A stretch of 23,902 nucleotides of DNA, taken from assembly GCA_947501605.1 (NCBI GenBank), contig CANMWZ010000050.1, forward strand, positions 1 through 23,902. Reading direction: 5' to 3'. Below are positions 6,001 to 9,000 of this stretch, one piece after another. This DNA comes from Planctomycetota bacterium. Its GTDB lineage: Bacteria > Planctomycetota > UBA1135 > UBA2386. Position numbers: made by a program. Each line of letters begins with the position of its first letter. Positions within the stretch are counted from its first letter, which is position 1.

Positions 6001-9000
6001 GGCGTCGGCACGACGATGCTGGACAACCTGTTCACTTCGAGTCGCCAAGCGGCGCGGCTGTGCAAGCAACTGCAGATCTACGCTGGCGGCTCACCGCCCG
6101 CGGCAGCGCCGATCACCGTCTGGGATTCGATCGCAGAGTTGCTGCCAGTCCTGCGTTCTGCCACGCTCGGCGTCGTCGAACTGGCGCCTTCCACGAGCAG
6201 CGAGCCAATCGGCGCGTTCGTCGATCGCGTGCAGTTGGAGCAGGTTCTGCTCAACCTCGTGGTCAACGCCAACGATGCAGGGGCAACCAAGGTGATGATC
6301 CGCGTCGATGCCGTCGATCGCGTCGACGACGTCAGGGGCCCAGCCGCGCGGATCGAAGTGCGCGACAATGGCGGCGGCATGAAGCCCGAAATCGTGCAGC
6401 GGATCTTCGACCCCTTCTTCACGACGCGTTTCCCTGGCCGTGGGCTTGGCCTCGCGGTTGTGCATGGAATCATCCGACGTCACGGCGGCACCGTCACGGT
6501 GTCGAGCCAGGTCGGAAGTGGCACGACCTTCGTCATTCACCTGCCGTGTACCGCGGAACTGGAACCGGGAGTCGAGCCAACGGTCGTGTTGCAACCGTCG
6601 TCGCGACAGCAAGCGGTCTTGCTCGTGGTCGATGACGATGACGGTGTCCGCTGCGTGTTGAGCCAGCTGCTTGCGGGCCTGGGCCACGAAGTCGTCCTGG
6701 CTGAGACTGGCCCGGCGCTGCTCGACGCCCTCGACAACGTCCCAGCCGACCGCCCCGTGGTGGTGTTCGCCGACCTCGGCATGCCCGGAATGGACGGGCA
6801 GGAAGTGCTGCGTGAAGTGCGTCGCCGCCGGCCCAGTGCACGCCGAGTTTTGATGAGCGGCCACCCAACCGACTACATCCAGAGGGTCGCAAGCGACGTT
6901 GCCCCGGACCGCGTGATCAGCAAGCCCTTCCGCCGCGACGCGCTCCGCCTCGCCCTCAGGCAGTTGCTCGGCCCAAGCACACCGCGGACATCGCTCGAGG
7001 CCGGTTCGACTGCGATCCAGAGTTCCGAAGGGTAGAAACTGGCAGGCTCTAACTTGCTACTGCTAAGCGCTTTATGGAATCCTCTAAAGTTTTCCACAGG
7101 TAGCGCTCAACTTCTCCCCGCCTTCTGCCGATCCTAGGAGCCCGGCTGTCACAGGCCGATTGTTCTTTGGTGTTCAGCTCCCACCAAGACGCTTCTCGAA
7201 AAGGCATACCCGGCGAAAGCCGGTGACGCAAAGCCAAGGGCCTTCGGTCGACAACGACCATGGCAGCCGGTTCCCGAAATGAAGCCAAGGCGACAACCAC
7301 AAAAGCGCAACCGCGCAACCGCTCGCCCCAAGTCCGCCCAGCCAGGGGGACACCCTCCAGCAGGAAGGGAAAGCGTCACCGGACCCGAGAGTCTCGACTC
7401 TTCGGCGAAGGTGCCTTTCGACGCGTCAGGAGCTGCCGTCCCGCATCACCCTCCCACACCGGTGATGTCAGTGCCCTCCGATCCCAACTGGAGTCCTCCC
7501 ATGGCCAAGTCCGCCGTCGCCACCCGCTCGCCCCGTTCGAAGTCCACGCCCCTCGCCGCGAAAATGACGTCCAAGCTCACGCTGCACGCCGTGCCCGCTG
7601 CGCCTGGTGCGAAGCTTCCGGGCAAGCTCCTCGCCCAGCCGGAGCGTTCGTCGCCGGACACGCCGACGCAGGGCCAGCGCATTGGTGACGACGAGCTGGA
7701 GACGGTCTGGAAGACCTACAAGAAGACGCGCGACGACAACCTGCGCAACATCCTCATCGAGCACCACATGCCGCTCGTCCGGATGATCGCCGAGCGCGTC
7801 CTGCAAACGCTGCCGAAGTCGATCGAACTCGACGACCTGAGCAGCGCCGGCACGTTTGGCTTGATGGACGCAATCAACGGCTTCGACCTGAGCCGAGGCA
7901 TCAAGTTCAAGACCTACTGCACGACGCGCATTCGCGGGTCGATCCTCGACGAGCTGCGTTCGCAGGACTGGGTCCCGCGCCTCGTGCGCCTGAAGGCCCA
8001 CAAGCTCGAGCGCGCTACGCGTCAACTCGAGGGCGAGCTCGGCCGCCTGCCGAACCAGGCTGAGTTGGCCAAGGCGCTGTGCATGACCATGGACGAGCTG
8101 CAGGCTCACCAGAACGAAGCCAGCGCTCGCACGATCTTCTCGCTCTCGGAGAAGTGGGACGACGGCGACGACGACAAGGAGATGGAGAAGATCGAGATCC
8201 TGGCCGACAAGAAGTGCACGGATCCCGTCGACACCATCCAGCAACGCGACTCCCTCGACACGATCACGCGCAACCTGACGAAGAAAGAGCGCCTGATCAT
8301 CCTGATGTACTACTACGAAGGCCTCACGATGCGCGAGATCGGCGAGATCATGGAACTCACCGAATCGCGTGTGTGCCAGATCCACAGCAACGTGATGGCA
8401 CGGCTCAAGGCCCAGCTCGATCGCGTGCAGCTCCAGAACGTGTGATCCCCGGCAAGGGTGATCCGCGCAGTCGTGTCTCGTTACGGCACGATGCGGACGG
8501 CGGCGCCTTCAGGCGTCGCCATGGTTGGCCGAACATCATGGAAGCGTCGCACTCTCGACGCCCCCACTGTCGATGAGTTCGATCGTCCAGATCATGCGCA
8601 CGCTGCGCTCGATGCCGCCGCTGCCCGATGTCGCAGAGCGCGTCATGGCCATCGTCCGCAACCAGGACTTCGCGATGACCGACCTGGTCGCGGTCGTGAA
8701 GACCGACCCGGCGCTGACGACGCGGATCCTCAAGCTCTGTAACTCATCGCTGTTTGGACTCGCGCGCGAGGTCAGTTCGGTCGCCGAGGCTGTGACCTAC
8801 ATCGGCTCGCGCAACCTGGTCAAGCTCGTGCTCGTCACGTGCACGGGCTCGTACTTCCGCAATCTGCCGCAGAATGACTACGCCGACCCGGCGCAGATGT
8901 GGCAGCAGACCTTGGCATGCTCGACCGCCTGCCAAGCACTCGCCGAGCGTACTCGCTACGCGCAACCATCAGCAGCGTTCACTGCTGGCATCTTGCACAA

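Follow-up and report, generated by a model that had tools for sequence, protein, structure and literature searches.

A probable c-di-GMP riboswitch upstream of fliA

c-di-GMP is a near-universal bacterial signal for swimming versus settling, and in planctomycetes, which have a life cycle with a swimmer and a sessile stage, the control of that cycle is almost unknown. The locus described here raises the question of whether, in an uncultured planctomycete, this signal acts directly on the mRNA of the flagellar sigma factor gene fliA, and through which RNA structures it might do so. A preliminary description of the window (the whole stretch of DNA analysed, 23,902 nt of contig CANMWZ010000050.1 in assembly GCA_947501605.1) had proposed, as its boldest reading, that a riboswitch lets c-di-GMP switch the late flagellar regulon through this mRNA, without a protein receptor.

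Identity and extent of the aptamer

An Rfam scan of the whole window returned a single match at the gathering threshold, to the c-di-GMP-I family RF01051 at 7193-7278 on the plus strand. The match scores 73.2 bits (gathering threshold 35 bits; E 7.1e-13) and covers model positions 1-87 of 87, and no further Rfam family was found in 7036-7560 at E <= 10. The window's own genome (4.65 Mb, 89 contigs, 91% complete) contains this one match, making the GEMM-I aptamer single-copy there. Around the aptamer core, GCUUC at 7191-7195 pairs with GAAGC at 7281-7285 as the outer part of a closing helix, and UCG at 7196-7198 pairs with CGA at 7275-7277 as its inner part. Judged by this pairing, the closing helix widens the c-di-GMP-I (GEMM-I) aptamer from the Rfam match to 7191-7285 (+).

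The extended structure is borne out by an alignment of 63 aptamers, in which 94.0% of cells in the aptamer helices are paired, compared with 19-45% in slid controls; the outer and inner parts of the closing helix are paired in 78% and 93% of cells, respectively. The covariation score is 0.230 versus 0.106 in shuffled alignments, and 11 pairs carry double changes versus 7.0 +/- 1.1, with 0 of 500 shuffles as high on either measure. Compensatory variants in the aptamer region occur at loci L009, L026, L027 and L105.

The window aptamer shares with GEMM as first described (in the sections of PMC1950547 drawn on here) two hairpins joined by AAA, with a GNRA tetraloop on the first. In the cmscan alignment it reads CCCGG-CGAAAG-CCGG ... 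GACGC-AAA-GCC, and when folded alone it forms both hairpins and the closing helix. It carries the stretch GGCAUAC, which in relatives reads GGCAAAC; in c-di-GMP binders the specificity position is a G just before this conserved CAAA-type stretch, and some GEMM-I variants bind 3'3'-cGAMP instead. The RNA in the fliA leader is a genuine c-di-GMP-I aptamer, predicted to bind c-di-GMP.

The fliA gene and its neighbours

The gene behind the aptamer (7501-8445, plus strand) encodes a flagellar sigma-28 factor of 314 aa, with an N-terminal low-complexity extension of ~85 aa and with Pfam sigma-70 regions 2, 3 and 4 all present. The protein scores 254 bits on the NCBIfam FliA/WhiG model TIGR02479 (cut-off 189.6) and 217.7 bits on the FliA model NF005413 (cut-off 201). 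Position 7501 is regarded as the correct start because the N-terminus, MA(K/R)S..., is kept among 23 orthologues and in-frame stops lie ahead of it in most of them. An ATG at 7279, which would open a 388-aa frame, was ruled out as the fliA start by in-frame stops in most relatives and by the conserved N-terminus beginning at 7501; by this comparison it belongs to the RNA and is not a start codon. Aptamer and start are thus separated by 222 nt on the same strand, and both this distance and the single copy agree with the preliminary description.

The gene order given there was likewise recovered. A hybrid histidine kinase ends at 7035, upstream of the leader, and fliA is followed, all on the plus strand, by genes for an HDOD protein, two family-less ORFs, FliO, FliP, FliQ, FliR, FlhB, FlhA, FlhF and a MinD/ParA-like protein. 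Because fliA heads the early export-apparatus genes fliOPQR, flhBA and flhF, the effect may reach beyond the late regulon, and the target first proposed is possibly too narrow. The phrase 'without a protein receptor' can be kept for the step at the fliA mRNA only; it does not extend to the genome as a whole, because five PilZ-domain matches above cut-off are found there.

Conservation of the aptamer-fliA arrangement

Relatives had not been consulted in the preliminary description. At 20 of 20 aptamer loci from the same family fliA lies downstream on the same strand, as it does at 3 of 10 loci from other families. Starting from fliA instead, a model built in this analysis places the aptamer upstream of the gene in 63 of 80 fliA-related loci, a set that overlaps with the one collected from aptamer matches. 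Of the 17 loci lacking it, 4 have no upstream DNA, 12 belong to distant fliA genes (<=64% identity) and one to a close relative, in which the entire leader is lost. Close fliA relatives with upstream DNA show the arrangement in 62 of 63 cases, and the leader module is retained or lost as a single unit among fliA relatives. A start could be located in 57 of 63 relatives, and in these the leader runs on for 115-379 nt past the aptamer. By these comparisons, the pairing of aptamer and fliA is strictly conserved in a whole lineage of uncultured planctomycetes.

Transcription of the leader

The aptamer and fliA are co-transcribed. Metatranscriptome contigs X2 (7089-8171) and X5 (7201-8220) join the aptamer to the fliA coding sequence on one RNA. 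In the runs that gave X2 and X5 the kinase gene is not covered by any contig at 6400-6800, stretches lacking RNA contig cover in some runs not being used as evidence, and one RNA contig bridges from the kinase gene. No terminator-like site lies between the aptamer and the fliA start, as had been reported before; the only one in 6900-7700 is located at 7143-7158, 5' of the aptamer. A sigma-70 scan, which covers that promoter type alone, gave no promoter-like site in 6900-7700.

A putative sigma-28-type promoter box is located at 7103-7137 (+), with a -35-like CTCAA at 7106-7110 and a -10-like GCCGATCC at 7127-7134, spaced as CTCAA-N16-GCCGATCC over 7106-7134. The sigma-28 consensus is approximately TAAA-N15-GCCGATAA. 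The box is conserved with fixed spacing in 23 of 23 fliA-linked loci, and a matrix trained on 22 relatives, with the window left out, ranks it as the best of 707 hits in the genome (20.0 bits). The fifth best hit (18.7 bits) sits 33 nt 5' of fliD, and for four of five flagellin genes the upstream region ranks within the top 7.2% of random windows. Two observations count against the assignment: among 16 ORFs examined behind top hits only one is flagellar, and X2 begins at 7089, upstream of the box and 52 nt 5' of the predicted transcription start, contigs being unable to map starts. We suggest that a sigma-28-type promoter drives the leader at least in part, in which case fliA would be autoregulated.

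Two hairpins precede the aptamer. The first feature, at 7143-7168 (+), consists of a GC-rich hairpin (7143-7158), which the consensus terminator scan flagged as terminator-like, and a GUUCUUU motif (7162-7168). The hairpin is kept in relatives with unrelated stem sequences (mean z -1.41, 8 with z < -1.64; 16 of 23 loci anchorable), the aligned fliA-linked loci share a conserved GNUCUUU motif, and the structure is probably the 5'-terminal stem-loop of the transcript. The second, visible in the alignments at 7167-7187 (+), is a small hairpin with the stem UUGGUG/CACCAA; its loop, CAGCUCC at 7175-7181, forms the 5' end of a long anti-aptamer helix.

A long-range anti-aptamer helix

The 3' strand of the anti-aptamer helix was located at 7414-7435 (+) by pairing and covariation in the leaders, and is predicted to pair with 7175-7204 in four sub-helices. 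From the outside inwards, CAGCUCC of the hairpin loop pairs with GGAGCUG at 7429-7435, ACGC at 7189-7192 with GCGU at 7423-7426, UCGAA at 7196-7200 with UUCGA at 7417-7421, and AGG at 7202-7204 with CCU at 7414-7416. The strand 7189-7204 comprises the closing helix, the junction As and the first GG of the first hairpin, so pairing with 7414-7426 is mutually exclusive with the aptamer. For the window the duplex energy is -29.7 kcal/mol, and the mean for 46 leaders is -25.7; minimum-energy folding of the window leader without constraints also yields this helix.

In helices 1-3 of this pairing 90.2%, 82.0% and 75.5% of cells are paired, with double changes such as AU 20/GC 9, CG 21/UA 11 and CG 16/AU 8. 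The loop:block helix 7175-7181:7429-7435, the first of these, has both-side changes in 5 of 7 pairs and in the anchored test 210 of 279 cells paired versus 198.5 +/- 3.1 in shuffles, 0 of 5000 being as high. A first anchoring of this helix, which reached no more than 16 of 68 leaders, was equalled by 493 of 5000 shuffles, and its per-sequence longest-match p-values are uninformative (1/68). Taken singly over distinct variants, the three inner sub-helices fall short of significance, since 884, 2555 and 3291 of 5000 shuffles, respectively, score as high. As another candidate, a leader strand complementary to the 3' strand of the aptamer was rejected: in the energy test only 3 of 23 leaders have z < -2, and exact matches at p <= 0.05 occur in 3 of 68, which is chance level.

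A helix at the ribosome-binding site

Behind the aptamer, a variable spacer (7286-7351, +), C-rich and G-poor in the window and poorly alignable among relatives, leads to the anti-SD strand (7352-7373, +), which was recognised from conserved blocks in 46 long leaders and consists of the core CUCCAGC at 7355-7361 and the purine block GGAAGGGAAAG at 7363-7373. Its predicted partner, defined by conservation and by this pairing, is the region 7474-7500 (+), with the pyrimidine block CCCUCC at 7474-7479 and the ribosome-binding region CUGGAG at 7488-7493. The GGAG of the latter stands 7 nt before the fliA ATG, and a GCUGGAGU block in the ribosome-binding region is conserved among relatives.

The pairing of 7352-7361 with 7487-7496 is kept in 75-83% of cells, with both-side changes in 8 of its 10 pairs; the anchored test gave 374 of 572 paired versus 343.0 +/- 5.6 shuffled, with 0 of 5000 as high. 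When each leader is searched upstream for the longest exact complement of its ribosome-binding region, 26 of 68 leaders have p <= 0.05 and 14 of 68 have p <= 0.01, with 21 distinct anti-SD strings of at least 8 nt. An ungapped 12-mer test permitting G:U stayed at chance level (5/68). In the window itself the anti-SD is weak, with an exact core of only 6 nt (p 0.46) and a duplex of -14.9 kcal/mol (z -1.3) when the flanks are included.

When the five proposed helices are taken jointly, 80.2% of cells are paired (75.9 +/- 0.4 shuffled; 30-39% slid), both-side changes occur in 17 pairs (10.0 +/- 1.5 shuffled) and the covariation score is 0.162 (0.110 shuffled), with 0 of 500 shuffles as high on each count and with controls of this kind removing shared ancestry only in part. 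The expression platform, which the preliminary description had listed as not identified, is on this evidence the anti-aptamer helix together with the anti-SD helix, the covariation supporting the two in combination. Because short and long leaders are unalignable past the aptamer, a joint alignment of both yielding nothing beyond it, we restrict the proposed helices to the long-leader group.

Proposed switch and its direction

The scheme that we infer treats the fliA 5' leader as a cis-acting c-di-GMP-I riboswitch with two mutually exclusive folds, with ligand binding, translational output, switch direction and promoter assignment as its predicted elements. In the ligand-free RNA, the aptamer 5' strand and the upstream hairpin loop (7175-7204) would pair with 7414-7435, ~220 nt downstream, which would enclose the anti-SD in a large closed loop and make the ribosome-binding site more accessible. 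Once c-di-GMP is bound, the aptamer (7191-7285) would hold its own 5' strand and so block the anti-aptamer helix; the anti-SD (7352-7361) and the purine block could then close on 7487-7496 and the pyrimidine block, turning translation off. We consider the core of this scheme, a cis riboswitch acting on fliA via these alternative helices, to be quite probable, and the whole mechanism including its off direction to lie just on the probable side. The original claim that c-di-GMP acts on the fliA mRNA through a cis riboswitch thereby gains support from the conserved aptamer-fliA pairing, the RNA contigs and the covarying long-range helices.

For the direction itself, folding restricted to nested structures gave an unpaired probability of the SD in the window of 0.17 with the closing helix forced versus 0.49 with the anti-aptamer helix. 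The corresponding means for 43 orthologues are 0.21 and 0.41, the anti-aptamer value being higher in 36 of 43, a result that is partly made by the method because nested-only folding bars the coexistence of two crossing helices. Even when no ligand bonus is added, 37 of 43 orthologues favour the aptamer state energetically (mean difference +11.4 kcal/mol), and the partner segments of the anti-aptamer and anti-SD helices overlap at chance level (32 observed, 30.4 expected). A simpler model of SD sequestration that omits the 5' leader was rejected, as the ribosome-binding site was unaffected by the aptamer state (mean difference 0.025, 13 of 23 positive). The nested folds of the full leader, together with the analogy to known systems, lean slightly towards high c-di-GMP turning fliA translation off.

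The opposite sign, with c-di-GMP turning fliA translation on, is unlikely but is the most serious of the alternatives. Here the freed strand 7414-7435 would capture the anti-SD and the purine block, leaving the real site free. This strand (CCUUUC...GGAG) mimics the pyrimidine block and SD, with 7429-7433 being SD-like, and the alternating purine and pyrimidine blocks would permit such a relay. Both long helices might moreover coexist as a pseudoknot, which looks sterically possible with loops of 38-147 nt; if they do, the off-switch logic fails. However, the decoy pairing is weak, averaging -17.3 versus -22.2 kcal/mol for anti-SD:SD, weaker in 39 of 46 leaders and close to the level of unrelated GC-rich segments, and the known biology of c-di-GMP and flagella runs the other way (PMC5386303, in the portion used here).

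It is rather improbable that the main output is transcript elongation or stability, through Rho-dependent termination or RNase access via the 5' structures, with the SD helix secondary. Such a reading would suit the lack of an intrinsic terminator between aptamer and start, the length of the leader after the aptamer, the export genes behind fliA that would be exposed to polarity, and the C-rich, G-poor leader of the window, whose C/G ratio of 1.52 over 7286-7500 (215 nt) is in the top 1.9% of random windows. That bias is not conserved, however, which led us to reject a Rho-loading tract of C over G: the mean C/G is 1.22 for leaders and 1.20 for coding sequence, with values under 1 in short leaders. 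Conservation and covariation are seen in the SD helix, and in two studies RNA contigs, which cannot show partial termination, pass unbroken through the leader into fliA. An aptamer uncoupled from fliA, standing alone for example as a c-di-GMP sponge while fliA uses its own promoter, for which 222 nt leave room and which the start of contig X7 at 7293 and the stand-alone riboswitch RNA of Bdellovibrio (PMC3627812, as far as cited here) would fit, is very improbable given the contigs joining aptamer and coding sequence, the covarying helices that tie sequence 5' of the aptamer to blocks near the start codon, the inheritance of the module as a whole and the empty sigma-70 scan, limited as it is to one promoter type. 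The earlier concern about a separate promoter is largely answered, such a promoter not being needed.

Comparison with known systems and implications

The closest known case is Cd1 of Clostridioides difficile. This c-di-GMP-I riboswitch belongs to the 5' UTR of flgB, an early flagellar operon that contains sigD, and through it high c-di-GMP represses flagella (PMC5386303, in the part consulted). Cd1 and the fliA leader have in common the aptamer class, a long leader (nearly 500 nt for Cd1) and a route by which c-di-GMP reaches a flagellar sigma factor via an mRNA leader. Cd1, however, stands before flgB, many genes 5' of sigD, and according to the same part of that paper is transcribed from a sigma-A promoter, its output being premature intrinsic termination at ~160 nt. 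In the leader described here the aptamer sits in front of the sigma factor gene itself, with a sigma-28-type box, no terminator, and predicted long-range anti-aptamer and SD-sequestering helices.

The first description of GEMM already reported the motif to be common in some 'Plantomycetes' orders and often to precede motility genes (Weinberg 2007, PMC1950547, in the sections used). Table 2 of that paper lists flg, fli and mot genes and no sigma factor; the Blastopirellula instance precedes Flp/CpaA pilus genes, and the single instance listed for Rhodopirellula baltica could be an earlier, unremarked case linked to fliA. Bdellovibrio bacteriovorus also combines a c-di-GMP riboswitch with a FliA-type regulon in one organism, but its merRNA is, in the portion of PMC3627812 cited, a free non-coding RNA proposed as a c-di-GMP reservoir and not a fliA leader.

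The fliA promoter itself invites a further comparison. In enterobacteria a sigma-28-type promoter precedes fliA itself and gives positive feedback, braked by the anti-sigma factor FlgM. In the genome studied here FlgM was not matched (the genome being 91% complete and the model short), and an RNA sensor would sit in the loop. We put forward as a speculative extension that the box at 7103-7137 and the riboswitch form an RNA-gated bistable switch, sigma-28 transcribing its own gene while the riboswitch gates translation inside the positive-feedback loop, with the loop-to-loop contact 7175-7181:7429-7435 bringing a competitor strand 220 nt away to the aptamer. If this were true, commitment to the swimmer or the sessile state would be made by an RNA sensor, a task that falls to FlgM and to protein receptors of c-di-GMP elsewhere; if the promoter assignment alone holds, the sensor would still lie inside a sigma-factor feedback loop.

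We know of no description of such a long-distance strand-exchange design for the c-di-GMP-I riboswitch class; if true, the leader would show that nature has riboswitches with switching strands separated by over 200 nt. As the 'sessile or motile' signal, c-di-GMP probably acts directly on fliA mRNA, and across dozens of species in an uncultured lineage it appears to reach the flagellar master sigma factor by this mRNA route. With one RNA, few helices and clear compensatory mutations, the leader offers a testable entry into the control of cell fate in planctomycetes.

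Aptamer and genome context

The sole Rfam match at the gathering threshold in the whole window is the c-di-GMP-I (GEMM-I) riboswitch family (RF01051) at 7193-7278 (+), with the full model covered and a score of 73.2 bits (cut-off 35 bits). The window's own genome (4.65 Mb, 91% complete) contains just this one match, in agreement with the preliminary description, which had named it the only such riboswitch of the genome. The aptamer extends beyond the Rfam match through pairing of 5'-GCUUC (7191-7195) with GAAGC-3' (7281-7285), inside which UCG (7196-7198) pairs with CGA (7275-7277), both on the (+) strand. 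Compensatory variants of this extended closing helix are found in four relatives (loci L009, L026, L027 and L105). In a set of 63 aptamers, pairing over the whole structure reaches 94% and the covariation score is 0.230 vs 0.106 after shuffling (0/500 shuffles as high); the inner closing helix is 93% paired, and the outer one 78%, with few double changes.

The genome has five GGDEF matches and five PilZ matches above cut-off, which indicates that c-di-GMP is made here and that protein receptors are present too. FlgM (PF04316) gave no match, an absence that is unproven given a short model and a genome 91% complete; fliA, fliD and five flagellin genes are nonetheless present. Four tandem flagellin genes followed by fliD occupy 29495-35892 of contig C23 of this genome (G000), and one flagellin match (C23:31962-32372) contains an in-frame TAG.

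Conservation of the linkage to fliA

Conservation in relatives had been left unchecked in the preliminary description. Among 40 relatives, 19 of the 24 same-family genomes have exactly one aptamer match, and the five without a match are 62–81% complete. Linkage was inspected at 30 aptamer loci. The fliA gene lies downstream on the same strand at all 20 same-family loci, the window's own included, and at 3 further loci, which belong to two other families of the order; 6 loci have no fliA within 1.5 kb and one has a sigma-like gene on the opposite strand. In sister families of the order, GEMM-I does not adjoin fliA at L018, L019, L022, L024, L029 and L030. At L019 (1674-2351) the downstream ORF starts with a prepilin-type N-terminus, recognised by eye, and L022 and L029 carry lipoprotein-like ORFs with a Gly run at the GEMM-I locus.

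The reverse approach covered 80 fliA-related loci from species-level genomes, all uncultured Planctomycetota MAGs, using a covariance model trained on 21 extended aptamers. An aptamer was found upstream of fliA on the same strand in 63 of them; the two locus sets overlap, as they come from the same species collection, with exact duplicate sequences removed. The other 17 gave no match with the curated Rfam model either. Four of these have no upstream DNA, 12 carry a distant fliA (at most 64% identity) and one, L115, is a close relative (74% identity) in which the leader module of box, hairpins, aptamer and anti-SD is gone (L115:900-1500). In L115 the interval between fliA and a phosphoribosyltransferase-like gene is just about 130 nt.

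The fliA gene and its start codon

The product of the gene 3' of the aptamer has Pfam sigma-70 regions 2, 3 and 4 and exceeds the cut-offs of NCBIfam TIGR02479 (254 bits, cut-off 189.6) and NF005413 (217.7 bits, cut-off 201). The neighbours are as previously listed: a hybrid histidine kinase gene ends upstream at 7035, and the FliA/WhiG sigma factor gene is directly followed by a region (8525-11340) with the gene of an HDOD-domain protein (178 bits) and two ORFs without a Pfam family (9777-10841 and 10750-11340), and then by FliO and FliP. FliQ, FliR, FlhB, FlhA, an SRP54-type FlhF and a MinD/ParA-like protein come next, so that fliA heads early export genes, not late genes. At the far end of the window (22095-23750, minus strand), the longest ORF joins a phage-integrase fragment (residues 1-77) to a GFO/IDH/MocA oxidoreductase; over-extension of the ORF, or a remnant, is the probable explanation.

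The fliA frame continues upstream without a stop as far as an ATG at 7279, which immediately follows the Rfam match and falls within the extended closing-helix region; annotation from this ATG could yield an ORF of 388 aa. This ATG is ruled out as the start, since position 7501 is where the conserved FliA N-terminus, MA(K/R)S..., begins, with stops in the same frame ahead of it in most of 23 orthologues; the start at 7501 and the reported aptamer distance of 222 nt therefore hold. In relatives the conserved blocks of the leader (window 7279-7500) lie in different frames or are broken by stops, which places their conservation at the RNA level. Before sigma region 2, FliA carries an N-terminal extension (window 7501-7755) in which Ala, Ser, Pro, Lys and Arg abound; its length is about 85 aa here and highly variable in relatives (up to about 190 aa, in L026).

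A putative promoter box and RNA evidence

A box at fixed spacing precedes the aptamer in 23/23 fliA-linked loci; in the window it reads CTCAA (7106-7110), N16, GCCGATCC (7127-7134) on the (+) strand, which we take to resemble the sigma-28 consensus. With a weight matrix trained on 22 relatives, the window excluded, this box ranks first of 707 whole-genome hits (20.0 bits), and the fifth (18.7 bits) lies 33 nt upstream of fliD. Upstream of four of the five flagellin genes the best score is one reached by 0.2–7.2% of random windows, at consistent distances, and in the remaining upstream region the spacer of the box is 1 nt longer. Against a sigma-28 reading, a flagellar ORF stands behind just 1 of 16 top hits examined. 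The promoter is probably autoregulatory, with fliA transcribed, at least in part, from a sigma-28-type box.

Just 3' of the box lies a GC-rich hairpin (7143-7158), its stem sequences unrelated among relatives, followed by a conserved GNUCUUU motif (hairpin and motif, 7143-7168); together they may be read as a putative 5'-terminal stem-loop. The pair resembles a weak intrinsic terminator just past a promoter, and GNUCUUU is also retained in short-leader relatives without the second hairpin. A second conserved block (7068-7097), about 20 nt before the box, reads CTTG..G.A...CT[A/C]AAG.TTTTC in relatives, with CTAAAG at 7085-7090 in the window, and could be a regulator site or a piece of a distal promoter.

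Twenty metatranscriptome runs from 14 studies contain part of the stretch, and contigs of four runs from four studies were placed on it. Single RNA contigs span 7089-8171 in one run (X2, with 6400-7008 uncovered) and 7201-8220 in another (X5), placing the aptamer and fliA coding sequence on one RNA, although such contigs give neither starts nor levels and DNA carry-over is possible. A contig of X7 begins at 7293, and one of X1 connects the kinase gene with the leader up to 7486. The X2 contig begins at 7089, which is 52 nt 5' of the box-predicted start, so a second, distal promoter or read-through is possible; this position falls in the conserved block 7068-7097.

A candidate expression platform

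The preliminary description had no expression platform. Alignment of 46 long leaders, in which conserved blocks are evident, yielded a covariation-backed candidate made of two long-range helices. In the anti-aptamer helix, a small hairpin immediately 5' of the aptamer contributes its loop (CAGCUCC, 7175-7181), which pairs with GGAGCUG (7429-7435), adjoined by ACGC (7189-7192) with GCGU (7423-7426), UCGAA (7196-7200) with UUCGA (7417-7421) and AGG (7202-7204) with CCU (7414-7416). Since it engages the aptamer's closing-helix strand together with the junction adenines and the GG that opens the first hairpin, it is incompatible with the aptamer. The anti-SD helix joins CUCCAGC (7355-7361) to its reverse complement, the ribosome-binding block GCUGGAG (7487-7493).

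Under controls that remove shared ancestry incompletely, all five helices taken jointly have 80.2% of cells paired vs 75.9 +/- 0.4 shuffled (0/500 as high) and 30–39% when slid, with both-side changes in 17 pairs vs 10.0 +/- 1.5 (0/500) and a covariation score of 0.162 vs 0.110 (0/500). By helix, 90.2%, 82.0% and 75.5% of cells are paired in the three parts of the anti-aptamer helix, compared with 74.6% and 82.6% in the two of the anti-SD helix. In anchored tests the loop:block helix had 210/279 paired vs 198.5 +/- 3.1 shuffled and the anti-SD helix 374/572 vs 343.0 +/- 5.6 (each 0/5000 as high); the three inner sub-helices of the anti-aptamer helix, each tested alone, were not significant. 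Among 68 leaders, the longest stretch of upstream leader exactly complementary to the -22..-3 region had p <= 0.05 in 26 and p <= 0.01 in 14, the anti-SD energy test gave z < -1.64 in 18, and a 12-mer test permitting G:U was at chance level. These leaders hold 21 distinct anti-SD strings of at least 8 nt, some with a different core.

Other candidates for the platform fared less well. As earlier reported, scanning found no terminator-like site between the aptamer and the fliA start, and no second Rfam family matched in the leader. A strand complementary to the 3' half of the aptamer had no support in complement tests, a Rho-type C over G tract in the window lacks conservation in relatives, and a hypothetical decoy pairing was dropped at a mean of just -17.3 kcal/mol (46 leaders). 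Folding without the 5' leader did not couple the aptamer state to the ribosome-binding site.

Predicted direction of switching

Across the 46 leaders the anti-aptamer helix has a mean duplex energy of -25.7 kcal/mol (-29.7 in the window), against -22.2 kcal/mol for the anti-SD helix (-20.4 in the window). Full leaders were folded with either the aptamer closing helix or the anti-aptamer helix as constraint. Unconstrained, the window's leader adopts the anti-aptamer helix (ensemble -138.0 vs -124.8 kcal/mol with the closing helix forced); when the aptamer is forced the anti-SD helix forms, and the unpaired probability of the SD falls from 0.49 to 0.17. In 43 usable orthologues the SD is unpaired at 0.41 in the anti-aptamer state vs 0.21 in the aptamer state, and is more open in the former in 36/43, a result partly made by the method, since crossing helices cannot coexist in nested-only folding. 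Even without ligand, 37/43 orthologues favour the aptamer state energetically, and the partner segments of the two helices overlap at chance level.

The c-di-GMP-bound aptamer would leave the SD closed by the anti-SD helix and fliA translation off. We lean modestly towards such an off-switch, with fliA off at high c-di-GMP, on the folding results and on the precedent of Cd1 of C. difficile, through which c-di-GMP represses flagella (PMC5386303). That c-di-GMP instead turns fliA on seems unlikely.

Relation to known riboswitches

The 2007 description of GEMM reports it to be common in 'Plantomycetes' and to precede motility genes (Weinberg 2007, PMC1950547). Table 2 of that paper is without a sigma factor, the gene-context row of its Rhodopirellula instance was not located in the parts searched, and the Blastopirellula instance is upstream of Flp/CpaA (PMC1950547). 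Cd1 differs in controlling, via intrinsic termination, the flgB operon that contains sigD (PMC5386303), and the riboswitch RNA of Bdellovibrio is free-standing (PMC3627812). In the literature searched, no fliA leader was described as carrying a GEMM-I aptamer. The sensor is known; its placement on the sigma-factor gene itself, the probable autoregulatory promoter and the switching helices of 220-nt range are new.
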